From: a virus
Lineage: Duplodnaviria; Caudoviricetes
Strand: one strand, 5' to 3'
Virus record (IMG/VR): IMGVR_UViG_3300048503_000032
Span: 42,773-106,772 of that record
DNA length: 64,000 bases
Shown here: positions 3,587 to 60,077 of the stretch, piece after piece
Numbering within the stretch: the first letter of the stretch is position 1
How the letters are laid out: the number at the start of each line of letters is the position of its first letter
Program-made: the position numbers and the translations under genes
The notes under the pieces: generated by a model
Databases searched by the model: none
Seen by the model: only the letters and a program-made list of their open reading frames with translations
Told to the model about the DNA's origin: nothing

Positions 3587-3813
3587 TGGCGAAGCTCTAT
3601 GTCATGTCGAGGATAGGTAGATCTCCTGCTCTTAATGTGTAGCGATGAAAGGCCTGGGGCGGAGCAAGTTCACTGTGTTTGAGTGGACTGTCAGAGTAGC
3701 GGCCAAGAAGAAGGCGATCCACATATGCGGCGAGGGATGTCTCTCGACGTTCATTAGTAGGGAGTTGAATAACCGGACAGCAGTAGAGCCTGCGAAGGCA
3801 GAGGAGCAGTAAC

Positions 3814-6173: not shown

Positions 6174-6695
6174 GGCGAGAAAAGAGGAATAGTGATGGAA
6201 GAAGAGACGAACTTTTATGATGAGGCACGCAGACTTGGAATCGACACGCAATCTGATCCTAACGAATATTGGAAGCCTGAGACTGTTCGCGTTTTTATGG
6301 TGGGCGATAGTGGACCTTATGTGGACGCCCTGGACTATCTATGGTTGCTGGATCGTTCTAAGCAGTAACCCCCGAGCGGGCGAGAGGAGTGAAATGATCG
6401 ACTTATATGGGACAGATGACTCATTCGATGAGCTGGACAGACCGCCATCAAAGTTCGGTACAGAGCAAAGTGAATCAAAGGCCAGTGTGCCGTGCCAGAG
6501 TGGCGAGAAAAGAGGAATAGTGATGGCCGAAGAGACGAACTTTTATGATGAGGCACGCAGACTTGGAATCGACACGCAATCTGATCCTAACGAATATTGG
6601 AAGCCTGAGACTGTTCGCGTTTTTATGGTGGGCGATAGTGGACCTTATGTGGACGCCCTGGACTATCTATGGTTGCTGGATCGTTCTAAGCAGTA
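6174..6695 (+). repeat. ~194-bp direct repeat (6174-6367 / 6502-6695) duplicating a 57-aa gene
   Basis: Near-identical copies, offset 328; only GAA/GCC differs after the ATG. Confidence 0.95.
6195..6368 (+). CDS. Hypothetical protein, copy 1
   Basis: AGAGGA RBS; MEEETNFYDEARRLG... Confidence 0.7.
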   Translation: MEEETNFYDEARRLGIDTQSDPNEYWKPETVRVFMVGDSGPYVDALDYLWLLDRSKQ

Positions 6696-51217: not shown

Positions 51218-52840
51218 GTGGTGTTCTACTTCGTCGGTATCCTATTTCGATTTCGAGGTTCGTCAATGAGCGTGACTGGCATCTCCCGTATGGTGGATTC
51301 GTGCAGCGACATGGTTCACAAGAAGGCAATCAAAACTTACCAGCATATTGCTCCGGAGAATAAGCGTTGGATCGACCTCGAAGACGTGATCCAAGAGGGT
51401 TTGATTAAGGCGTGGGAAACCGAGCAGTCTTACACGCAGCACTGGGCAGAGTCTGACGCACCGACTCATTTCAAGAGCAAGTTTTCGACCTACCTATTCC
51501 GTGGACTCGACATGCTGTTCTCTGGCCGGTACTCGATTCCGTTGAGCGCGCGTAAGCGGGTTACCAAGTTGGTCGAGTTGGATGCGCCGATCGGTGGCGA
51601 GGACGGCGCTTCCCACATCGATATCCCATCGCATAATGTATCGCCAGAGAGAATGTTTCAGGCTATCTCGGGTGTGGTGCAGGTCTGCTACGCTATTCCG
51701 CCGGCGGCGCTGTCGTTTCTGCTGGGCGTGATTGTCTCGGATGCGGGCAGGATTAGACGACGGACAGCGAATGACATAGCATGTATTCCAGATGCATGTT
51801 CCAGGTTTGGGGTCACTCGGTACGACTTAGAGTTGATCATGGGCGATCTGGAGTCGAAGAGCAGAGTGCTGGAGAGCGTGATGGCGGCAGATGCGAAGTT
51901 GGGCGAGGACGATGTCAAGGTGCTGGAGTGTGTGACGTGCCGGGGGATGTTCTCTCTGGGCGATGTCAGGACGGGCAATTACTCGGTGACCAGTCTTACC
52001 TGCCATGCATGTTTGAAGAAATTGTACGAAGAATCGGACAGCAGCTCTTGCTTTGGACGCATGAAAGTGGTATACAATAACAAGACGGCGACAGAGGGTT
52101 ACTCTGAAGCCGATACAGAATGCAGACTTCATTGTAGGGATCGTGCAGCATGTAGGAAATTCATCAAGGAAGGTAGGACGAATATGACACCTGAGAAAGT
52201 TGCCAATATGGAATTCGATCTGGAAGATGTAGACCTGAGCAACATCGAGGCTGCGGAACCCGTGGCCACCACAACCAAACCTGCGAAGAGCAGCAGCAAG
52301 AAGGCCGCAGCCAAGGCACCGGCGAAGACCGTAACCAAGGCAGTGAAGAAGGCGGAGCCGGTCAAGGCAGCGAAGAAAGCGGAAGCTCCCAAGGCCGATA
52401 AGACAGCAGTCAAGGCACCGGCGAAGGTGGCGACGAAGAAAGCGGCCAAGCCCGAGGGCGAGAAGCATGTGCGGACTGCCAAGTCCACGGCCAAGATCGA
52501 TCCGAAGGTGGCCAAGGCGCAGGGACTCATCAAGCTCGACGACCAGGGCCGCGACCTGCCGTTCAAGCAGGGATCAACGATGCGGTATTGTCTGGAGCAG
52601 GCGCTGGCTCCGGGCGGCGTGAAGGAGAAGGATCTGGAGAGGGAGCTGACCAAGCTCGGGTATTCGTATCCGTTGCAGCGGTCTGTCCTGATGTCCGGCA
52701 AGAGCGGCGACAGTTCGTTCAGACCCTACCCCAGCACGCATGTGTGGAAGGCTGAAGTGAAGGGCGACCGAATCATCGTGTCGGACGTTAAACGGATCGC
52801 TTTTTATCACAAGATGGCGCGCATTCAGTCTGCGAAGTAA
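51218..52840 (+). CDS. Sigma-factor region 2-like domain + Cys-rich domain + Lys/Ala-rich histone H1-like region (start uncertain; internal start likely at 52184)
   Basis: DLEDVIQEGLIKAW...KFSTY; CVTC, CHAC, CFG, CRLHC; KKAAAKAPAK repeats. Confidence 0.7.
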   Translation: MVFYFVGILFRFRGSSMSVTGISRMVDSCSDMVHKKAIKTYQHIAPENKRWIDLEDVIQEGLIKAWETEQSYTQHWAESDAPTHFKSKFSTYLFRGLDMLFSGRYSIPLSARKRVTKLVELDAPIGGEDGASHIDIPSHNVSPERMFQAISGVVQVCYAIPPAALSFLLGVIVSDAGRIRRRTANDIACIPDACSRFGVTRYDLELIMGDLESKSRVLESVMAADAKLGEDDVKVLECVTCRGMFSLGDVRTGNYSVTSLTCHACLKKLYEESDSSSCFGRMKVVYNNKTATEGYSEADTECRLHCRDRAACRKFIKEGRTNMTPEKVANMEFDLEDVDLSNIEAAEPVATTTKPAKSSSKKAAAKAPAKTVTKAVKKAEPVKAAKKAEAPKADKTAVKAPAKVATKKAAKPEGEKHVRTAKSTAKIDPKVAKAQGLIKLDDQGRDLPFKQGSTMRYCLEQALAPGGVKEKDLERELTKLGYSYPLQRSVLMSGKSGDSSFRPYPSTHVWKAEVKGDRIIVSDVKRIAFYHKMARIQSAK

Positions 52841-52866
52841 TCGGCCGGCAAGCTGGTTAGGTTGGC

Positions 52867-52901
52867 GAGGTCATCCTAGAGATGGGATGGCCTCACTTTT
52901 T
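52867..52901 (+). terminator. Intrinsic terminator insulating the tRNA array
   Basis: GAGGTCATCCT-agagat-GGGATGGCCTC-ACTTTTT. Confidence 0.85.
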
Positions 52902-52938
52902 ACTTGCAGGAATATCGAGTCTGTGGTGTACTCAATAA

Positions 52939-53014
52939 AGCGGCCGAGTGATGATGGCTTCACGCCAGTCTCATAAGCTGGAAATCGGCAGTTCGACTCT
53001 GCTGGCCGCTACCA
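52939..53014 (+). tRNA. tRNA-Met/Ile2 (CAT), upstream of attenuator 1
   Basis: AGCGGCC/GGCCGCT, CCAGT-CTCATAA-GCTGG, TTCGA, CCA. Confidence 0.88.
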
Positions 53015-53028
53015 TTAGGAGTACGGAA

Positions 53029-53112
53029 ATGAAGATGCAGTTATCCAGTTCGCGCTATCTCTCGTCACTCGATTGCCTGAGTGCGAGTCGGCGTGTTCTG
53101 GATCAGACTTAG
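53029..53112 (+). CDS. Leader peptide 1 MKMQLSSSRYLSSLDCLSASRRVLDQT
   Basis: AGGAG RBS; L/S/Y/D/C codons match block 1 tRNAs. Confidence 0.85.
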   Translation: MKMQLSSSRYLSSLDCLSASRRVLDQT

Positions 53113-53164
53113 CAAGAGATGATCTGAAGCACACCGACCCGCCAGATGGCGGGTTTTGTTGTTT
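53083..53164 (+). terminator. Attenuator 1: antiterminator 53083-53142 versus terminator 53136-53164
   Basis: GTCGGCGTGTTCTGGATCA pairs with TGATCTGAAGCACACCGAC; ACCCGCC-agat-GGCGGGT-TTTGTTGTTT. Confidence 0.85.
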
Positions 53165-53241
53165 GCGGGGATACGCAAATCGGCAAAGCGGGGATTCCTA
53201 AAAAGTCCTGTCTGCGGGTTCGAGGCCCGCTCCCCGTACCA
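53165..53241 (+). tRNA. tRNA-Leu (TAA), C33
   Basis: GGATT-CCTAAAA-AGTCC; CCA end. Confidence 0.8.
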
Positions 53242-53243
53242 GG

Positions 53244-53318
53244 GCACGACAAGACAATCGGATAGTCGGCAGACTGCAAATCTGCTCTTGTCCCGTTCGA
53301 CTCGGGAGTCGTGCTCCA
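53244..53318 (+). tRNA. tRNA-Cys (GCA)
   Basis: GCAGA-CTGCAAA-TCTGC; U73; CCA. Confidence 0.9.
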
Positions 53319-53336
53319 GTTCTTTGACAATTGATT

Positions 53337-53414
53337 GCGCTGGTGACGGGAATAGGAATACCTATCAGGTCGAGAGCCTGGTGATTGTGGGTTCGAGGCC
53401 CACCCAGCGCACCA
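53337..53414 (+). tRNA. tRNA-Leu (GAG), C33
   Basis: TCAGG-TCGAGAG-CCTGG; CCA. Confidence 0.85.
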
Positions 53415-53417
53415 TGT

Positions 53418-53494
53418 GCCGGTGTATGCAAATAGGCAAAGCAGCTTCGCTTAGAACGAAGTGTTTGGGGGTTCGATTCCCTTCACCGGTACCA
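53418..53494 (+). tRNA. tRNA-Leu (TAG)
   Basis: CTTCG-CTTAGAA-CGAAG; CCA. Confidence 0.9.
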
Positions 53495-53500
53495 AGTTTG

Positions 53501-53581
53501 GCCGATGTACGCAAACAGGCAAAGCGGCGAAGCTCAAAACTTCGTGATTGACTGTCGGTTCGATTCCGACCATCGGCACCA
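53501..53581 (+). tRNA. tRNA-Leu (CAA)
   Basis: CGAAG-CTCAAAA-CTTCG; CCA. Confidence 0.9.
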
Positions 53582-53586
53582 AGTAT

Positions 53587-53680
53587 GATGGGATGGCTGA
53601 GCGGCTGAAGGCTCTGGTTTGCTAAACCAGCGCACCTCTTTATCGGGGTGTCGTGAGTTCGAATCTCACTCTCATCGCCA
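53587..53680 (+). tRNA. tRNA-Ser (GCT)
   Basis: CTGGT-TTGCTAA-ACCAG; long variable arm; CCA. Confidence 0.93.
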
Positions 53681-53684
53681 GTTT

Positions 53685-53773
53685 GGAGGGTTGGCCGAGT
53701 GGCTGAAGGCACTAGTCCTGAAAACTAGAATACCGAGAGGTATCGCGGGTTCAAATCCACGCACCCTCCTCCA
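53685..53773 (+). tRNA. tRNA-Ser (TGA), C33
   Basis: CTAGT-CCTGAAA-ACTAG; long variable arm; CCA. Confidence 0.88.
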
Positions 53774-53777
53774 TTTC

Positions 53778-53869
53778 GCAAGCGAGGACAGATACGGTTG
53801 GCTGCACCTGACTGTAAATCAGGATCCTCTTCGAGGACATTGGGAGTTCGAATCTCTCCGCTTGCACCA
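53778..53869 (+). tRNA. tRNA-Tyr (GTA)
   Basis: CCTGA-CTGTAAA-TCAGG; long variable arm; CCA. Confidence 0.93.
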
Positions 53870-53873
53870 GTTT

Positions 53874-53947
53874 GGTTTCGTCGTTCAATGTAGGATGCTC
53901 CCTTGTCAGGGGATAAGATGCGGGTTCAAGTCCCGTCGAAACCGCCA
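53874..53947 (+). tRNA. tRNA-Asp (GTC)
   Basis: TCCC-TTGTCAG-GGGA; G73; CCA. Confidence 0.88.
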
Positions 53948-53959
53948 TAAAATTAGTTG

Positions 53960-53988
53960 TTGCATTTCAAGGGAACGTATGGGAAGCT
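53960..53988 (+). promoter_or_regulatory. Candidate promoter for tRNA block 2
   Basis: TTGCAT-17 nt-GAAGCT with TGn extension; weak -10. Confidence 0.45.
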
Positions 53989-53998
53989 AGGAATCGAT

Positions 53999-54070
53999 AT
54001 GAAGCATCTGGCGACAACGCGCGCGTTCCCAACCCAGGCACAACAGCCGGGTGGTAATCGTATGCGCTAG
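53999..54070 (+). CDS. Leader peptide 2 MKHLATTRAFPTQAQQPGGNRMR
   Basis: Codons match all 13 block 2 tRNAs; stop abuts antiterminator. Confidence 0.85.
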   Translation: MKHLATTRAFPTQAQQPGGNRMR

Positions 54071-54072
54071 TC

Positions 54073-54140
54073 GCTGGGGTTTTATGCGCGAGGATTCTCG
54101 CAGAACATACACCCTGGCCAACCAGCCAGGGATTTTTATT
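54073..54140 (+). terminator. Attenuator 2: antiterminator 54073-54118 versus terminator 54112-54140
   Basis: GCTGGGGT/ACCCTGGC outer stem, TATG/CATA, GCGAG/CTCGC; CCCTGGC-caacca-GCCAGGG-ATTTTTATT. Confidence 0.88.
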
Positions 54141-54163
54141 GCTCGGTATCTCAATTGATTTGA

Positions 54164-54250
54164 TGGGGTGTGCCCGGAACGGTATCGGCCTCGGCTGTTA
54201 ACCGAAGTGCTCAAAAGAGGATGGGGGTTCGACTCCCTCCGCCCCAGCCA
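54164..54250 (+). tRNA. tRNA-Asn (GTT), enlarged variable region
   Basis: TCGG-CTGTTAA-CCGA; G73; CCA. Confidence 0.85.
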
Positions 54251-54263
54251 GTATAATGGGAGG

Positions 54264-54854
54264 ATGAGAAAAGATATCCAAGCAGCGGGTACTAAGGCTT
54301 CGGCGGCGTTATCAAGACAGAAAGCTATTGATCTGTATTCCGAGAGTCCGAATCGATGCTTACAGTGTTTAGCTGTGATTGAGTTGCGTGGACGTAGGTC
54401 TTCTATTGTTAGGCGACAGAAGTTTTGCTCACATGGATGTGCTGGCAGTTACAACAACAGTCGCTTTCCGAAGCGTAAGCCGGAAGGTCAGTGTGAAGGA
54501 TGTGGGACACCGATAAGGGCGTGCTTGAAGTATTGCAGTCATAAGTGCAGGGCAAAATATCGTAGGCATAGAACGCGAGAAGAAGTGGCGGCTGGGAACG
54601 TGCAGGCTGTGATCGGTTGGAGGACGCGAACTAAGGATAAGGCGGTTGCATACAAGGGAGGAAAATGTTGCCGATGCGGTTACGACAGATGTGTCAGGGC
54701 ATTGGATTTTCACCATGTAGATCCTTCCAAGAAAGATTTTGCGGTAAGCAGGGTTTCAAAGTCGTGGGCGGTAATTAAGGCGGAGTTGGATAAGTGTATT
54801 TTGCTGTGCTCCAACTGTCACCGAGAGTTTCACGACGGGATGTGGAAGATGTAA
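54264..54854 (+). CDS. HNH endonuclease with Zn-finger repeats (free-standing homing type)
   Basis: CCRCG...ALDFHH...CILLCSNCHREFH; TATAAT 6 nt before ATG. Confidence 0.9.
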   Translation: MRKDIQAAGTKASAALSRQKAIDLYSESPNRCLQCLAVIELRGRRSSIVRRQKFCSHGCAGSYNNSRFPKRKPEGQCEGCGTPIRACLKYCSHKCRAKYRRHRTREEVAAGNVQAVIGWRTRTKDKAVAYKGGKCCRCGYDRCVRALDFHHVDPSKKDFAVSRVSKSWAVIKAELDKCILLCSNCHREFHDGMWKM

Positions 54855-54862
54855 GAGATTGT

Positions 54863-54937
54863 TCCCCGTTCGTTCAAATGGGAGGACGCAATCCTCTGAA
54901 GATTGTCATGGTGGTTCGAGTCCATCGCGGGGAACCA
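54863..54937 (+). tRNA. tRNA-Gln (CTG)
   Basis: CAATC-CTCTGAA-GATTG; CCA. Confidence 0.9.
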
Positions 54938-54944
54938 GAATTAT

Positions 54945-55054
54945 CGGGAGCTAGTGTAAACGGCCTGAGCCAGAGCCCTACGGGACGGAATGCTCAAAGC
55001 ACGGAGCGCATGGGGCGCTCTAGTGCGAGACTGGCAGCCTCGCAATCCCGACCA
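54945..55054 (+). ncRNA. Aberrant tRNA-like RNA (Pro-like acceptor, expanded D region, no TTC loop)
   Basis: CGGGA/TCCCG-A-CCA; GAGCG-CATGGGG-CGCTC; TGCGAG/CTCGCA stem. Confidence 0.6.
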
Positions 55055-55061
55055 AGTTTGA

Positions 55062-55135
55062 TCGCTAGTCGTTCAACGGTAGGACGGATGGTGTTGACCC
55101 ATCAGATCAGGGTTCGATCCCTTGCTGGCGATCCA
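55062..55135 (+). tRNA. tRNA-Gln (TTG), G33
   Basis: GATGG-TGTTGAC-CCATC; CCA. Confidence 0.82.
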
Positions 55136-55146
55136 GAAGTTGTAGT

Positions 55147-55220
55147 GCGGAATCGGTGTGACGGTCGCATGGAATCTTGCCGAGATTCGGGCGAGGGTTC
55201 GACTCCCTCATTCCGCTCCA
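55147..55220 (+). tRNA. tRNA-Gly (GCC)
   Basis: GAATC-TTGCCGA-GATTC; U73; CCA. Confidence 0.9.
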
Positions 55221-55226
55221 GTTTGT

Positions 55227-55301
55227 GCCGGTGTAGCTTAGATGATAGAGCGTCGCACTCGTAACGCGATGACCCCGGTTTGATTCCGGGCACTGGCTCC
55301 A
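55227..55301 (+). tRNA. tRNA-Thr (CGT)
   Basis: TCGCA-CTCGTAA-CGCGA; CCA. Confidence 0.88.
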
Positions 55302-55312
55302 GAAAGGTAAGG

Positions 55313-55870
55313 ATGATGAGAAATGTGATGCGCAGTCCGGTGCTGGTGCTGAATGCGTCATACGAGCCGTTGCACATCTGTGCTGCGCGTCGTGCTCTTA
55401 CGTTGATCGTGAAGGACTGCGCTGTCATTCAGCATGACACTGGTCGGCAGGTTCATGTCGGCATAATGTTTCCTTCAGTGATTCGGCTGAAGCGTTACGC
55501 GAGGGTTCCGCATCGCGCTCAGGAGATGACGAGAAAGAACATCCTCATGCGCGACGACTATCGGTGCCAGTATTGCGGAGAGGTGTTCTCAGGTGCGGAG
55601 TTGACGCTTGATCACATACTTCCGCGGGCACAGGGCGGTTTATCGACGTGGGAGAATCTGGTGGCTGCGTGCGGTGAGTGTAACCGGCGCAAGGGCAACC
55701 AGACTCCCGAAGAGGCGGGTATGCCTTTACTGAGGCGTCCCAGGCCGGTCACGCTGCACACCGCTCGCGGGATCTTGCGGGCACAGGCCAGTGACGAGAA
55801 GGTGTGGCAGAAGTATCTGTTTTATGACAACGCAGGTTGCCAGGAAGGAGTCACGTTTGGGCCGTCGTAG
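55313..55870 (+). CDS. HNH endonuclease (McrA-like, VLVLNASYEPL family)
   Basis: RDDYRCQYCG...TLDHILP...GG..TWENLVAACGECNRRK. Confidence 0.92.
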   Translation: MMRNVMRSPVLVLNASYEPLHICAARRALTLIVKDCAVIQHDTGRQVHVGIMFPSVIRLKRYARVPHRAQEMTRKNILMRDDYRCQYCGEVFSGAELTLDHILPRAQGGLSTWENLVAACGECNRRKGNQTPEEAGMPLLRRPRPVTLHTARGILRAQASDEKVWQKYLFYDNAGCQEGVTFGPS

Positions 55871-55936
55871 CTCGTATGGAAGAGCACTCGCTTGGTAAGC
55901 GAGAGGTAGCGAGTTCGACTCTCGCAGGCGGCTCCA
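55861..55936 (+). tRNA. tRNA-Thr (GGT)
   Basis: CTCGC-TTGGTAA-GCGAG; CCA. Confidence 0.9.
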
Positions 55937-55940
55937 GTTT

Positions 55941-56012
55941 GCCGGTATCGCATGGTGCTGAGTCTCATTTGTAACGAGACTCTTACGGGTTCGATTCCTG
56001 TTGCCGGCCCCA
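55941..56012 (+). tRNA. tRNA-Thr (TGT), reduced D arm
   Basis: TCTCA-TTTGTAA-CGAGA; CCA. Confidence 0.78.
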
Positions 56013-56019
56013 AAGATGT

Positions 56020-56095
56020 GGAGAGGCTGGCAGAGTGATTATGCGCCGGTCTGTGGAGCCGGTTTACATCGGTTTGATCCCGATGCCTCTCCCCA
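56020..56095 (+). tRNA. tRNA-His (GTG)
   Basis: G-1:C73; CCGGT-CTGTGGA-GCCGG; CCA. Confidence 0.9.
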
Positions 56096-56100
56096 ACAAG

Positions 56101-56170
56101 TCCGGAGACGTAGGGTTCGATGCCTACTCGTCATAGAAATGTGGCGGTCGTCTAGTGGCAGGATACCGGG
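56101..56170 (+). ncRNA. Circularly permuted tRNA-like element (3' half precedes 5' half)
   Basis: TCCGG-agac-T arm-TCGTCAT, 6-nt linker, GTGGCGG-D arm-CCGGG; halves pair in acceptor and anticodon stems. Confidence 0.6.
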
Positions 56171-56186
56171 GCTATGAATACAATTC

Positions 56187-56266
56187 GGGGCGTAGGACTA
56201 CATGCGGTGGTCGCTTCTCTTGCAAAGAAGATATTCAGGTGGGTTGGATTCCCGCACGCTCCACCA
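56187..56266 (+). tRNA. tRNA-Ala (TGC)
   Basis: G3:U70; CTTCT-CTTGCAA-AGAAG; CCA. Confidence 0.88.
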
Positions 56267-56272
56267 AGTTTT

Positions 56273-56348
56273 GCTGCTTGCGTAGGTCTGGTGATTACGC
56301 TGGTCTGAAAATCCAGAGAACGCAGTTCGATTCTGCGAGGCGGCACCA
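56273..56348 (+). tRNA. tRNA-Phe (GAA)
   Basis: CTGGT-CTGAAAA-TCCAG; CCA. Confidence 0.88.
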
Positions 56349-56353
56349 AGTAT

Positions 56354-56427
56354 CGGGGTAGGGTGTGACGACCGCATCCTAGTTTTGGGAACTAGTGGAT
56401 CGGGTTTGACTCCCGGTGCCCCGACCA
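56354..56427 (+). tRNA. tRNA-Pro (TGG)
   Basis: CTAGT-TTTGGGA-ACTAG; C1:G72, A73. Confidence 0.88.
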
Positions 56428-56431
56428 TTTA

Positions 56432-56507
56432 CGGAGAGTGGCCAAGAGGAAAGGCTCCAGTTTCGGGAACTGGGAATTCGTGAGTTCGAGTCTCACCTCT
56501 CCGACCA
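56432..56507 (+). tRNA. tRNA-Pro (CGG)
   Basis: CCAGT-TTCGGGA-ACTGG; CCA. Confidence 0.92.
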
Positions 56508-56513
56508 GAGTTT

Positions 56514-56589
56514 GTCCCTTTGGTGAAATGGAATATCACACGAAGCTACGAACTTCGAGTTGCGGGTCTGAGTCCCGCGGGGGGCACCA
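56514..56589 (+). tRNA. tRNA-Arg (ACG)
   Basis: CGAAG-CTACGAA-CTTCG; CCA. Confidence 0.88.
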
Positions 56590-56598
56590 TTTTAGAAG

Positions 56599-56628
56599 TT
56601 GCATCCCACGCTGGAGAGATGGTATGGT
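56599..56628 (+). promoter_or_regulatory. Candidate promoter for tRNA block 3
   Basis: TTGCAT-18 nt-TATGGT with TGn; embedded in an inverted repeat. Confidence 0.55.
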
Positions 56629-56694
56629 TTCTCCAGTGCAACAAAAGCATGAATGCTCCGGCCCGGAGGGTAAGTTGGGCACGAATTGAAATCC

Positions 56695-56769
56695 ATGAGA
56701 CAGACCTTCAAACACGAGATAACCATTAGGCGCGCTGAAAAGCGGGTCATGTGGGGGATCGTGTTTTAA
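56695..56769 (+). CDS. Leader peptide 3 MRQTFKHEITIRRAEKRVMWGIVF (may start at TTG 56686)
   Basis: Codons match all 13 block 3 tRNAs; TAA overlaps first base of antiterminator. Confidence 0.85.
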   Translation: MRQTFKHEITIRRAEKRVMWGIVF

Positions 56770-56825
56770 GGGGTCTGCGCTGTGGTACCACCAGACCCCT
56801 CGCTCAGTGCGAGGGGCTTTTTATT
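56769..56825 (+). terminator. Attenuator 3: antiterminator 56769-56800 versus terminator 56796-56825
   Basis: AGGGGTCTG/CAGACCCCT perfect 9 bp; CCCCTCGC-tcagt-GCGAGGGG-CTTTTTATT. Confidence 0.9.
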
Positions 56826-56845
56826 GTTCTTTGAGATGATGATGT

Positions 56846-56915
56846 GCCGGGTGATCTGAGATCAGGTGAGCCTCCAAATCTCGCCAGCTAGGTTCGATTC
56901 CTAGACCTGGTGCCA
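56846..56915 (+). tRNA. tRNA-Trp (CCA), reduced D arm
   Basis: loop CTCCAAA; CTAGG-TTCGATT-CCTAG; G73; CCA. Confidence 0.8.
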
Positions 56916-56916
56916 C

Positions 56917-56988
56917 GGCTCGTACCTCTGGCGAGGACGCAGGACTCATAACCCTGTTCACTGAATTCGATTTTCAGGCGAGCCACCA
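56917..56988 (+). tRNA. tRNA-Met/Ile2 (CAT)
   Basis: CAGGA-CTCATAA-CCCTG; CCA. Confidence 0.8.
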
Positions 56989-56989
56989 T

Positions 56990-57084
56990 AGAGGACAGCA
57001 CCGACGTGCGGCGGAGTCTTATAAACTCTGGAAAGGCTGCGGACTGCGGCTAACGGGAGGGATTGACACCCTCGTCCTCTACCA
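56990..57084 (+). tRNA. tRNA-Ile (TAT) with long variable arm
   Basis: AGAGGAC/GTCCTCT; GGAGT-CTTATAA-ACTCT; atypical T loop; CCA. Confidence 0.75.
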
Positions 57085-57085
57085 T

Positions 57086-57162
57086 GCCTCGATAACTCAA
57101 TCGGTTTAGAGTCCTGCCTCTTAAGCAGCGAGACCCAGGTTCGATTCCTGGTCGGGGCACCA
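57086..57162 (+). tRNA. tRNA-Lys (CTT)
   Basis: CTGC-CTCTTAA-GCAG; CCA. Confidence 0.92.
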
Positions 57163-57168
57163 AGTTTC

Positions 57169-57245
57169 GGAAGCGTAACTCAACGGGTTCAGAGTCTCGC
57201 CTTTTAAGCGATGAGACGGGGGTTCGAGTCCTCCCGCTTCCACCA
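57169..57245 (+). tRNA. tRNA-Lys (TTT)
   Basis: TCGC-CTTTTAA-GCGA; CCA. Confidence 0.92.
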
Positions 57246-57246
57246 T

Positions 57247-57321
57247 GCAGCCGTCGTCCAACGTATAGGGCATCGATCTTCTAAATCGAGGACGTGAGTT
57301 AGACTCTCACCGGCTGCTCCA
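57247..57321 (+). tRNA. tRNA-Arg (TCT)
   Basis: TCGAT-CTTCTAA-ATCGA; CCA. Confidence 0.88.
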
Positions 57322-57327
57322 TTTTAT

Positions 57328-57401
57328 GGCGCGTTCGTTCAACGGCAGGACATCGGTTTTTCACATCGAGAACAAGAGTTCGACCCTCTTACGCGCTACC
57401 A
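57328..57401 (+). tRNA. tRNA-Glu (TTC)
   Basis: TCGGT-TTTTCAC-ATCGA; CCA. Confidence 0.9.
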
Positions 57402-57407
57402 AGTTTT

Positions 57408-57483
57408 GCCGTGATCCGCCAAGCGGCTAGGCGACTGGATTCTCACTCCAGCAATCCGAGTTCAAGCCTCGGTCACGGTACCA
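57408..57483 (+). tRNA. tRNA-Glu (CTC)
   Basis: CTGGA-TTCTCAC-TCCAG; CCA. Confidence 0.9.
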
Positions 57484-57485
57484 GT

Positions 57486-57561
57486 CACTCTGCGGTGAAA
57501 TTGGATATCACGGTGCTCTCCGAAGGCGCAGTTTCGAGTTCGAGTCTCGACGGGGTGACCA
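57486..57561 (+). tRNA. tRNA-Arg (CCG)
   Basis: GTGCT-CTCCGAA-GGCGC; CCA. Confidence 0.88.
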
Positions 57562-57570
57562 TCAAGTTTC

Positions 57571-57645
57571 GCTCCCTTCGTTCAGTGGACAGGACGATGA
57601 CCTCCTAAGTCGTAGACGGCAGTTCGACTCTGCCAGGGAGTACCA
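57571..57645 (+). tRNA. tRNA-Arg (CCT)
   Basis: ATGAC-CTCCTAA-GTCGT; CCA. Confidence 0.92.
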
Positions 57646-57649
57646 GATT

Positions 57650-57727
57650 GCAAGCGTGGGCCAGCGGCGACGCCGCCTCTCCTACAAAGAGGAATTACCG
57701 GAGGTTCGAGTCCTCCCGCTTGCACCA
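57650..57727 (+). tRNA. tRNA-Val (TAC), C33
   Basis: CCTCT-CCTACAA-AGAGG; CCA. Confidence 0.85.
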
Positions 57728-57790
57728 GTTCGTTCCCGTCATCCAGCGGCTAGGATGATCGCCCGATTAGCTTATGGTATATTCGAGTTT

Positions 57791-58267
57791 ATGAAGAGGA
57801 AGCCTTGTTGCCGCTGTGGGTCTACTAAGAATGTGATGGTCAAGGGGCATGCTTACTGCCGTGTGTGCAATAACGCATACAGTAAGAAATATTACTATGC
57901 TGATCGTGAGGGACGCCTCGCAAAGATTGCGGAGTATGTGCGGAAGTTGCGTCTTCGTAGGAAAGCGTTGATTAACGACTTGAAGAGTCGTCCGTGTGTT
58001 GATTGCGGTAGGACTTTCCCGGCTGTTTGTATGGATTTTGATCATCTAGACGGTACGAATAAGCAGGGTTGTGTCAGTTCTATGGTGAACAATACTGGAG
58101 CTTCTCTAAAGCGTGTGATGGCAGAGATAGCCAAATGCGATTTGGTTTGTGCGAATTGCCATCGTATTCGAACGCATCATCGTACGGTAGCTCAACAGGT
58201 AGAGCATGCGCTTGATAAGCGCAAGGTAGTTGGTTCAAGACCAACCCGTACGACCAAGATTAGATGA
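57791..58267 (+). CDS. HNH endonuclease (free-standing homing type)
   Basis: CVDCG...MDFDH...CDLVCANCHRIRT; 3' end runs through tRNA-Ile. Confidence 0.88.
   Translation: MKRKPCCRCGSTKNVMVKGHAYCRVCNNAYSKKYYYADREGRLAKIAEYVRKLRLRRKALINDLKSRPCVDCGRTFPAVCMDFDHLDGTNKQGCVSSMVNNTGASLKRVMAEIAKCDLVCANCHRIRTHHRTVAQQVEHALDKRKVVGSRPTRTTKIR
58181..58256 (+). tRNA. tRNA-Ile (GAT)
   Basis: TGCGC-TTGATAA-GCGCA; CCA. Confidence 0.92.
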
Positions 58268-58299
58268 GGGAGTTCGAGTCTGAGCGGGAACACCAATAT

Positions 58300-58374
58300 G
58301 CGGGCATAGCCAAGTGGAAAGGCATGAGGTTTCCACCCTCACATGCGCCGGTTCAATCCCGGCTGCTCGCTCCA
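58300..58374 (+). tRNA. tRNA-Gly (TCC)
   Basis: TGAGG-TTTCCAC-CCTCA; U73; CCA. Confidence 0.92.
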
Positions 58375-58429
58375 TATTCCCTCTTGACGGCCATCAGGTC
58401 GTCTATAGTGGTGTCAGGAGGGTAAAACG

Positions 58430-58978
58430 ATGCGCTACGTTCGTCTACACGGGGTTGTTGGGGCTGTGGTGGTGGGTTTCCTTGCCGGCGGGCTGGCGCT
58501 GGCTCAGCAGGCGGTCTACGGGCATTCTCAGGGTAAGTTTCTACCAGATCCGAAGGTCACCCCTGGGGCGGTCGACCCGAGCCTGGTGGCGGATCTGACG
58601 AAGGCTCCACACATGGTGGCCGGCGTCGAGCATAATATCTGTGCCGCGGACTTCAGGACTCCGCCGTTTCGGGTGGCCACCAAGAGCCAGAAAATCAAGA
58701 CGGCGGTCTGTAAGGCTTACGGCATCCTGAATGGATGCCCTGGGTCACAATGGGAGTTGGATGACATCATCCCGATTGAGGTTGGCGGGCAGAATATACA
58801 GATCAATCTTTGGCCGCAGAACATAGGCGAGGCTCGGGTCAAGGATCATCAGGTGGAGGACTTGCTTGGAGGCCCGAAGGGTTTGGTCTGCCGCGGGAAG
58901 ATCAGTCTGTCGGATGCGCAGTCGTGCATCGTGAATGATTGGACGGCTTGCGCTGTTCGGATCGCCGCGCTGAAGTAA
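58430..58978 (+). CDS. Signal-peptide-bearing HNH-like protein
   Basis: Hydrophobic N-terminus ending ALA; LPDPKVTPGA, ELDDIIPIEVGG..NLWPQ (first His replaced by Asp). Confidence 0.7.
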   Translation: MRYVRLHGVVGAVVVGFLAGGLALAQQAVYGHSQGKFLPDPKVTPGAVDPSLVADLTKAPHMVAGVEHNICAADFRTPPFRVATKSQKIKTAVCKAYGILNGCPGSQWELDDIIPIEVGGQNIQINLWPQNIGEARVKDHQVEDLLGGPKGLVCRGKISLSDAQSCIVNDWTACAVRIAALK

Positions 58979-59009
58979 GGACGTAGCGGAGATCATCTAT
59001 AATCACGTT

Positions 59010-60077
59010 ATGGCTACTCAACAGGCAAAAGTACCAGCGAAGAATTTTAAGAGTCTTATCGGTGCGATCCTGAAGTTTCCGCCGTCGGCATCGGTGTCGG
59101 CGAGTGAGGTCGTGCATTTCGCCGTCAACAACGGACGCGCTCGAGCATCGATCTCAGGTGTCGTAGTCAGTACGGCCACAGTGATCGGGATGCATGAGGT
59201 GGAGGCGTTCACGGCGGACTACCGATCGCTTCGAGGTTTCGCGGCGACTATCCCAGCGGATGGTTCAGTCGATATTATGGTCAGCGCGAAAGACAAGCAG
59301 GTGCGCTTGGTGTGCGGAGAGCAGAAACTGAATCTGTCATACACGCTGGGATCTGTGTTGGCGAAGCCGAAGGTCGCTGAGCCATTTTTCACGGTGACTG
59401 CGGAGACGGCTGTTGCGATCAGGTGGTTGGCTGGTGTCGCAGAGAAAGACGAGAGCAAGCTCGACATGTGCTGCGTTTATCTCAGTGGCGGCAGGGCGAT
59501 GGCCGGCAACCAGAAGTGTATCGGTGTAGCACATACTGCGGGTCTGCCGCAGGAGTCGATTCCGTTGCCGTTGAATCTCTGCGCGGTGCTGGAGTCTGGG
59601 GACAAGCTGTCGAAGGCCGAGGGTGGTTTGATCTTGACCAGCGGCTGCGGTGTCTCGCAGGTTCCTTACCTGGTGTCTTCGATCAAGTTCCCGGTGGCTG
59701 TGGTGGAGCGGATGGAGGCGTCGGCTGGGGCTACCTATGCTAGATGCAAGGCGCGTGACATGGTGTCGGTATTCACGGAGTCGGCGGATTGTGTGGCGAG
59801 GATTCCTAAGGCTCAGGCGTTCCTGGTGGTGACATTCAAAGACGGCAAGATAGGAGTCAGGGCGCAGAGTCAGACGGCTGTCTTCCGTACTGTATTGGAC
59901 GGTGAGGTCAAGAAGGACGGCGACCTTTGGCTTGAGCTGCCGGAAGCAGAAGAGGCTCTGAAGGCGTTCGGTGACGGGGATGTGAGTTGCAGGAAGCTCT
60001 CACCGAAGGGCGAAGCTGCGCTTGAGGGTTCGGAGGCGAAGGTATTTTTTGCGCCTGTAAGACAGGCGGGGGCATAG
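59010..60077 (+). CDS. Putative DNA sliding clamp (beta-like)
   Basis: 355 aa with repeating alpha/beta pattern resembling DnaN; weak. Confidence 0.55.
   Translation: MATQQAKVPAKNFKSLIGAILKFPPSASVSASEVVHFAVNNGRARASISGVVVSTATVIGMHEVEAFTADYRSLRGFAATIPADGSVDIMVSAKDKQVRLVCGEQKLNLSYTLGSVLAKPKVAEPFFTVTAETAVAIRWLAGVAEKDESKLDMCCVYLSGGRAMAGNQKCIGVAHTAGLPQESIPLPLNLCAVLESGDKLSKAEGGLILTSGCGVSQVPYLVSSIKFPVAVVERMEASAGATYARCKARDMVSVFTESADCVARIPKAQAFLVVTFKDGKIGVRAQSQTAVFRTVLDGEVKKDGDLWLELPEAEEALKAFGDGDVSCRKLSPKGEAALEGSEAKVFFAPVRQAGA

Follow-up and report, generated by a model that had tools for sequence, protein, structure and literature searches.

Short leader ORFs written in the codons of the tRNAs behind them as probable attenuators of a phage tRNA array

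Why phages carry transfer RNA (tRNA) genes, and how these genes are regulated, are long-standing questions. The usual answers to the first are codon usage or, recently, escape from tRNA-cleaving defences, and the arrays themselves are treated as constitutively expressed. The second question is raised by a tRNA array in the virus record IMGVR_UViG_3300048503_000032 (106,772 bp, 54% G+C), of which we analysed the right-hand 64 kb, called the window here and the source of all coordinates for which no other record is named. The array occupies 5.4 kb of the plus strand directly 3′ of a sigma-factor-like gene and consists of one Met tRNA followed by three blocks of tRNA genes, each block preceded by a short open reading frame (ORF) and an intrinsic terminator. 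We put at roughly 80% the probability that each of the three units gates one tRNA operon as a multivalent ribosome-mediated (leader-peptide) transcription attenuator.

An earlier note on this DNA had described three ORFs of 23 to 27 codons, each followed by an intrinsic terminator, and we find them where it placed them, all on the plus strand like the tRNA genes themselves. Leader ORF 1 (53029-53112; 27 codons, AGGAG 7 nt upstream) precedes block 1 (53165..53947), which holds Leu(TAA), Cys, Leu(GAG), Leu(TAG), Leu(CAA), Ser(GCT), Ser(TGA), Tyr and Asp; 16 of 26 leader codons are read by that block. For leader ORF 2 (53999-54070; 23 codons) the count is 19 of 22 codons, and all 13 of the 13 tRNAs in block 2 (54164..56589: Asn, two Gln, Gly(GCC), three Thr, His, Ala, Phe, two Pro and Arg(ACG)) are represented. 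Leader ORF 3 (56695-56769; 24 codons) has 15 of 23 codons read by block 3 (56845..58374), which runs from Trp, Met(CAT), Ile(TAT), two Lys, Arg(TCT), two Glu, Arg(CCG), Arg(CCT) and Val through an HNH-like ORF (57791-58267) to Ile(GAT) and Gly(TCC).

To score the match, each sense codon was assigned to the phage tRNA expected to read it. Blocks 1, 2 and 3 then receive 16, 6 and 4 codons of leader 1, 1, 19 and 2 codons of leader 2, and 0, 8 and 15 codons of leader 3, so that the diagonal holds 50 of 71 codons. A cognate codon stands in the own leader of 34 of the 35 tRNAs, the figure that the earlier note had given, with Leu(CAA)/TTG as the sole exception. Neither value was reached in any of 200,000 trials in which tRNAs, or amino-acid units, were permuted among the blocks. 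Restricting the analysis to tRNAs called by ARAGORN at default settings and to strict wobble gave 40/71 and 28/29, which none of 100,000 permutations reached. The genome has 316 comparable short ORFs, and for its own block each leader scores best or second best of them. Because the blocks loosely track the first codon letter (T-rich, C-rich and A/G-rich codons), we also ran composition-controlled shuffles. Mononucleotide shuffles gave p ~1e-3, 5e-5 and 1e-3 for leaders 1-3, and shuffles that keep the composition of each codon position gave p = 4e-4, 5e-5 and 1.2e-2. The permutation test and the comparison with shuffled ORFs, both named in the earlier note, favour the match. It also depends on the frame, with 50/71 codons in frame and 20/68 and 28/68 out of frame.

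The match extends to the level of isoacceptors. Leader 3 has no codon for Leu, Ser, Cys, Tyr or Asp, and leader 2 has none for Ser, Cys, Tyr, Asp, Glu, Ile, Val or Trp, exactly as had been claimed; the claimed division of the Arg and Gly isoacceptors between leaders 2 and 3 holds apart from one CGC codon in leader 3. When the peptides were held fixed and synonymous codons were redrawn from genome usage, the observed isoacceptor coverage arose in 4% of draws with wobble and in 1.8% with Watson-Crick pairing only. Synonymous codon choice therefore adds modest support. The rare codons TTA, CAA, AAA, ATA and AGA are each used where the matching U34 tRNA follows. We had also asked whether own-block codons of leader 1 concentrate where a stall should matter; at 9/13 versus 7/13 the difference is not clear, and the argument was dropped.

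Each leader is associated with two helices that compete for the same bases. The plus strand of the whole 107-kb genome has only 14 terminator-like sites, four of which, T0 to T3, lie in the tRNA array; strong terminators are rare in the genome and clustered at this place. T0 (52867..52894) closes the sigma-factor gene. The other three combine a G+C-rich stem with a T tract and stand 10, 33 and 29 nt before the first tRNA of their blocks: T1 (stem 53136-53155, T tract to 53164, reaching the start of block 1), T2 (stem 54112-54131, T tract to 54140) and T3 (stem 56796-56816, T tract to 56825). The earlier note's claim of an antiterminator in all three leaders is supported by predicted plus-strand helices that overlap the terminator 5′ arms. 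In antiterminator 1 (53083-53142; -28.6 kcal/mol versus -15.2 for T1), codons 19-24 of the leader pair with a stretch that includes most of the T1 5′ arm. In antiterminator 2 (54073-54118; -20.4 kcal/mol versus -14.2 for T2) the partner of the T2 5′ arm is a 5′ strand that begins 3 nt past the stop codon, and antiterminator 3 (56769-56800; -17.6 kcal/mol versus -17.8 for T3) overlaps the stop codon with its 5′ strand and the T3 5′ arm with its 3′ strand. Codons 2-5 of leader 3 can in turn pair with the 5′ strand of antiterminator 3 as an anti-antiterminator, and in full-length minimum-energy folds an early segment of the ORF pairs with the antiterminator upstream strand. Together with antiterminator and terminator, this early pairing completes the classic 1:2, 2:3 and 3:4 alternatives. 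A ribosome that reached the end of the ORF would take the upstream strand out of pairing, given the position of this strand in the last codons of leader 1 and, in leaders 2 and 3, at the stop codon or closely behind it. The 72 nt upstream are more complementary to the terminator arm than dinucleotide shuffles are, with p = 0.001, 0.068 and 0.078 for leaders 1-3.

Candidate promoters on the plus strand accompany these units. P0 (52904..52932; TTGCAG, 17 nt, TGTACT) ends ~7 nt before tRNA-Met, P2 (53960..53988; TTGCAT, 17 nt, GAAGCT) lies before leader 2, and P3 (56599..56628; TTGCAT, 18 nt, TATGGT) before leader 3. The motif TTGCA(G/T)-N16-18-T-rich has two matches in the 64-kb window, before tRNA-Met and leader 3; a weaker version precedes leader 2, recognized by its position. 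These motifs suggest that each block may form its own operon of promoter, leader, attenuator and tRNA genes. A permissive Rfam scan of 52000-59500 found no T-box or other known cis-regulatory family, returning only tRNAs and chance-level matches.

In the mechanism that we propose, RNA polymerase would transcribe the short leader ORF while a ribosome translates it in step. Were all codons decoded promptly, the ribosome at the end of the ORF would unwind or cover the antiterminator upstream strand, the terminator would form and transcription would stop before the block. Were the ribosome to wait at any codon lacking a usable charged tRNA, the antiterminator would form first and hold the terminator 5′ arm, allowing readthrough. 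With a leader made up mostly of codons that its block reads, about one per isoacceptor, slow decoding would turn the block on and quick reading would turn it off. Because each leader is written mainly in the codons of its own block, each block would be switched by the decoding speed of the codons that it serves. Such a circuit would be a closed feedback loop on tRNA supply and an OR gate over 9-13 tRNA species. The sequences show the anatomy, the codon statistics, the conserved listing and its recurrence in a second lineage; leader translation and stalling-dependent readthrough we infer, and the natural trigger might be a host tRNA pool ill suited to the codon use of the phage, shut-off of the host, cleavage of tRNAs by defences, or starvation.

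Metagenome relatives were recovered through a profile of the sigma factor and two Granulicella records through an exact 23-mer of leader 1. Searches by blastn against the phage collection gave single-tRNA matches only, scans of viral contigs with single proteins and DNA patterns found no relatives, and the sigma-factor profile had no match among genome contigs. Four versions of leader 1 could be compared: those of the window, of the metagenome contig L004, of Granulicella aggregans M8UP14 (L024, NZ_JACHIP010000002.1) and of a contig from a Granulicella sp. metagenome-assembled genome (L025/L028, PLUT01000190.1). In all four the ORF, its start and the position of its stop are kept, and the sole indel is an in-frame 3 nt; homologous arrays keep the ORF with in-frame indels only, the opposite of what the earlier note had named as a ground for abandoning its reading. 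The GAGG-type Shine-Dalgarno sequence is kept in L004, L024 and L025. Variation is confined to the early codons, the antiterminator-forming strand is invariant, and in both L024 and L025 a C-G pair of T1 has become U-A, a compensatory change.

The early codons that vary do so with the tRNAs that follow. A TTA codon occurs in leader 1 only where Leu(TAA) follows (4/4 versions consistent, two of them carrying it). Both L025 and L024 lack tRNA-Cys, and in place of the Cys codon of leader 1 the former has a Tyr codon, the latter a Ser codon. The G. aggregans unit has seven tRNAs, Leu(TAG), Ser(GCT), Tyr, Asp, Phe, Pro(TGG) and Arg(ACG), all 7/7 of which are represented in its leader; that leader has an extra Phe codon, as well as a Pro codon where L004 and L025 have TTG, and its block has no Leu(CAA). 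The unit adjoins a gene with a Ro60/TROVE domain.

The L025 contig carries ordinary chromosomal genes and a 30-tRNA array on the three-block plan of the window. Its leaders 2 and 3 have only the first codons in common with those of the window, and leader 2 ends in a different terminator. Nevertheless, the three blocks receive 15, 8 and 4 codons of its leader 1, 2, 16 and 4 of leader 2, and 0, 4 and 14 of leader 3, that is 45/71 on the diagonal, with 28/30 tRNAs covered; 0/50,000 permutations reach this. Leaders 2 and 3 have thus diverged and still list their own blocks, so it is the listing that is conserved and not the peptide. The layout of antiterminator 3 is present with changed sequence. 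The start codons of leaders 2 and 3 are preceded, at a distance of ~30-40 nt, by elements of the TTGACA and TTGCAA types, and P2 has a positional homologue, TTGACA-17-GAACAT.

L004 is 80-87% identical to the window overall at the nucleotide level and keeps the promoter region with P0, tRNA-Met, leader 1 and T1 at ~96% identity; the stem of T0 has many changes and is still a hairpin. Its leader 1 differs by two substitutions, both non-synonymous, and one inserted codon, and the changes run in the expected direction, with CTC lost and TTG, readable by Leu(TAA), gained. The covariation of leader and block that the earlier note had proposed to look for in other arrays is seen in L025 and in L024, whereas L004, taken as a whole, is mismatched.

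Judging from these homologues in Granulicella chromosomal DNA, leader-gated arrays are not phage-specific. Because the array and its leaders have such close homologues there, the sequences suggest Granulicella (Acidobacteriota) as the likely host and an exchange of the array between host and phage. The leader was present in 1/301 sampled genomes of the family of Granulicella. Within the phage group, tRNA content runs from 0 to 36, and the two more distant relatives, L001 and L002, have no tRNAs, which marks the array as accessory. L001 (IMGVR_UViG_3300032893_000009) is a complete record of 118,881 bp with 52% sigma-factor identity and 0 tRNA genes.

A second, independent family has the same design. 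Other tRNA arrays were screened for leaders with a small pipeline, and Brevundimonas phage Gurke led to nine phiCbK-like phages. Each main tRNA block of these nine phages of Caulobacter and Brevundimonas lies behind three elements: a promoter of the TTGACA type, a short ORF whose start follows the -10 element within a few bases, and a very strong terminator. The leader of the Pro/Thr/Lys/Leu/His/Ala/Ser block is 38-44 codons long; 29-38 of these codons are cognate and 0-3 belong to the other block. Up to 38/41 codons are read by the block that follows, and the leader covers 11-15 of 11-15 tRNAs, i.e. nearly every one. In several records it is annotated as a hypothetical protein. Before the Tyr/Phe/Val/Ile/Gln/Asn/Arg block, a 31-codon leader contains a 15-codon run that uses those seven amino acids only. 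Tested against the phages' own codon usage, the match has binomial p down to 2e-12, and the leader was the top short ORF of its locus in 5/6 tests. Indels in the leader ORFs are multiples of three, and a leader segment mimics the terminator 3′ arm, which yields an 11-bp antiterminator with 98% of cells paired and two compensatory pairs. These leaders share no sequence with those of the window; the design therefore arose twice or is very old. It is not universal, since the pipeline found no convincing leader in the array of Sphingobium phage Lacusarx.

The phiCbK-like arrays have further features of their own. A Pro-rich ORF before the Pro tRNAs of Gurke was considered as a leader and rejected, being in the wrong frame; the real leader lies in another. 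Gurke, Rogue, Colossus and Bambus have a conserved five-codon mini-ORF between the leader terminator and the first tRNA, with a strong AGGAG site and the reading M-T-G-G-D or M-N-N-G-G (L015:27845-27870, L016:9160-9190, L017:7180-7210 and L018:7390-7420). A Glu/Asp tRNA pair is preceded by a separate promoter of the TTGACA type and by an ORF of 20-21 codons, among them two for Glu and one for Asp (L015:20723-20788, L016 ~6390-6455 and L019 ~3700-3765). A hairpin lies over the stop codon of this ORF and has no T tract, so a different output mechanism may be at work there.

Several observations weigh against reading the three window units as attenuators. The ribosome-binding site is weak in leader 2, with only AGGA upstream, and none is recognizable in leader 3. 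Off-diagonal codons make up 21/71, for example the 8 codons of leader 3 that are served by block 2, and leader 1 lacks TTG although block 1 has Leu(CAA). Classical attenuators have runs of regulatory codons, and a single codon per tRNA is expected to give a less sensitive response. Six of the tRNAs score under default detection thresholds. In the relatives, L025 leader 1 has one Phe and one Pro codon and its block 1 lacks those tRNAs, and leader 1 of L004 is followed only by Leu(TAA), Ile(GAT) and Gly(TCC); it has no Ile or Gly codon, and its Ser, Tyr, Asp and Cys codons have no tRNA behind them. Either a recent deletion or an assembly that jumped between similar tRNA genes may account for the short block of L004. 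Finally, equilibrium folding with a masked ribosome footprint favoured the terminator at every ribosome position. Folding of this kind does not discriminate a stalled from a finished ribosome, and the switch would therefore have to be kinetic. A kinetic choice is also what operates in known attenuators.

The same switch could have the narrower purpose that the earlier note proposed: where a host anticodon nuclease such as PrrC, VapC or PARIS destroys a tRNA, a new copy would be made on demand. One codon per tRNA would suit the detection of a missing tRNA better than that of a graded fall in charging, and phage tRNAs are reported to counter tRNA-targeting defences (PMC12409363). Nothing in the sequence points to such a link, however, no defence or counter-defence gene having been examined; the design would serve equally well as a plain supply-and-demand regulator, and homologous leader-gated arrays stand beside housekeeping genes in Granulicella chromosomal DNA. 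That these units occur on bacterial chromosomes speaks for a broader role in matching supply to demand, and we regard a dedicated defence function as rather unlikely.

The leaders might alternatively be translated sensors whose output is RNA processing, stability or Rho access instead of intrinsic termination, the hairpins being mainly operon ends. Such a reading would accommodate the equilibrium models, in which the terminator is not displaced, as well as the position of T2 and T3, which also close the preceding blocks and would end transcription of these, and the hairpin without a T tract at the stop codon of the phiCbK-like Glu/Asp leader. It is made improbable by the three window units and both main phiCbK-like units, all of which have canonical hairpin-plus-T-tract terminators directly before the first tRNA and a competing helix that uses the terminator 5′ arm. 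That the ORFs encode functional small peptides or are fortuitous, with terminators that only separate operons and a match due to composition or chance, might be suggested by the loose tracking of the first codon letter, which base composition could mimic, and by the annotation of two phiCbK-like leaders as hypothetical proteins, but it is very improbable given a frame-specific match that exceeds composition- and codon-position-preserving shuffles, L025 leaders 2 and 3 that keep the listing and not the peptide sequence, two L004 leader 1 substitutions that are both non-synonymous, and the recurrence of the property in the unrelated phiCbK-like lineage.

As a class, attenuation by leader peptides is textbook; what is new in the attenuators proposed here is the tRNA target, the many-codon index and the match at the level of anticodons. 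Multivalent attenuators are known from enterobacteria, where the ilvGMEDA leader has Ile, Leu and Val codons and the thr leader Thr and Ile codons, alongside the trp, his, leu and pheA leaders. The window has in common with these amino-acid operon leaders a short ORF for a leader peptide, regulatory codons, a terminator, antiterminator and anti-antiterminator, a predicted control by ribosome position and a predicted sensing of more than one amino acid. It differs in having tRNAs and not biosynthetic enzymes as its putative targets, so that the loop would close on the decoding molecules themselves; in listing 9-13 isoacceptors with about one codon each, where the enterobacterial leaders have runs of one to three amino acids; in the anticodon-level match, with Arg and Gly split between blocks; and in its occurrence in phages and horizontally mobile arrays. 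In Escherichia coli, the pheST operon for an aminoacyl-tRNA synthetase is under attenuation through the pheM leader. Like the units proposed for the window, it places a component of the translation apparatus under a leader peptide with cognate codons; unlike them, it involves a single amino acid and a protein-coding operon. Attenuator-like leaders are reported before the E. coli tRNA-Phe genes pheU and pheV. T-box riboswitches also sense tRNA status through a choice of terminator or antiterminator, as we propose for the window, but their signal is a single uncharged tRNA, bound directly by way of a specifier codon, and no translation is required.

The closest comparison by content is with the L-arrays of bacteria, which have more than 20 densely packed tRNA genes, are long, horizontally spread and supernumerary, often include a homing endonuclease gene and are induced when translation is in trouble. 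With 36 tRNA genes in 5.4 kb, three endonuclease-type ORFs and a sporadic distribution, the array of the window belongs among them by structure. The trn operon of Anabaena sp. PCC 7120 is an L-array that stays silent until translation is impaired (PMC8421152), and its control has been attributed to the repressor TrcR, acting at the promoter (PMC10272220). The published control of L-arrays is thus a promoter repressor, and PMC8421152 mentions no leader peptide, attenuation or terminators. For phiCbK, whose tRNA clusters have by our analysis the promoter-leader-terminator-block design of the window with unrelated leader sequences, the genome paper of Gill et al. (2012) lists tRNAs and predicted terminators and is silent on leaders and attenuation (PMC3556154). 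The earlier note had known of no account of leader-peptide attenuation for phage tRNA arrays, and a full-text literature search, with most subscription journals outside its scope, likewise found no description of it for tRNA genes or arrays.

On balance we lean towards the view that codon-indexed leader attenuators are a general, unrecognised control of mobile tRNA arrays, in unrelated phages and in bacterial L-arrays. Such control, if general, would explain why tRNA arrays stay silent until translation falters, and would offer a mechanism for the induction of bacterial tRNA arrays under translational stress. The ribosome would measure tRNA supply directly, with correction block by block, and classic attenuation would extend from amino-acid supply to the decoding machinery. 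For annotation, a short ORF and terminator before a tRNA block, often labelled hypothetical protein, would be a candidate leader. As compact sensors of natural origin, the leaders could also report how available individual tRNAs are, and phiCbK with Caulobacter provides a tractable system for the idea.

The total of 36 tRNA genes given in the earlier note needs qualifying: 30 are called by ARAGORN at default settings, and four, which are Thr(TGT), Ala(TGC), Pro(TGG) and the second CAT tRNA, only at a relaxed threshold. The other two were recognized by eye or homology: Trp(CCA) has only a weak covariance-model match of 23 bits, and Ile(TAT), at ~56991-57085, was recognized in the window by eye only. 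Trp, Met(CAT) and Ile(TAT) are, however, called at the equivalent positions in the homologous array L025. These three adjacent non-canonical tRNAs open block 3 (56845-57085); Trp(CCA) has a very short D arm, and the Ile(TAT)-like gene has a long extra arm and an atypical T loop. The first tRNA of the array, tRNA-Met(CAT) at 52939..53014 on the plus strand, lies upstream of the first candidate attenuator and reads as elongator-like, with an A1-U72 pair and no GGG/CCC anticodon stem.

Elsewhere in the window are genes for a replicative helicase, a primase, an exonuclease and DNA methyltransferases. The sigma-factor-like gene directly upstream of the array (51218-52840) has 14 homologues in metagenomes and 0 in the phage collection, and the homologues carry Pfam PF04542; clusters of Cys in the sigma-factor-like gene are invariant, and it includes a long segment rich in Lys, Ala and Pro.

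Within block 2, tRNA-Asn (54164-54250) is unusually long at 87 nt, and two spacers, 54938-55061 (124 nt) and 56096-56186 (91 nt), in which no tRNA, ORF or terminator was called, may be decayed tRNA genes. Three endonuclease-type ORFs lie inside the blocks, at 54264-54854 and 55313-55870 in block 2 and at 57791-58267 in block 3. Among the three, only the second has a significant Pfam HNH match; in the bacterial array it has a homologue in the equivalent position (L025:2572-3141). In the other two, motifs with Cys and His can be made out by eye, and the ORF in block 3 extends across tRNA-Ile(GAT) at 58181-58256.

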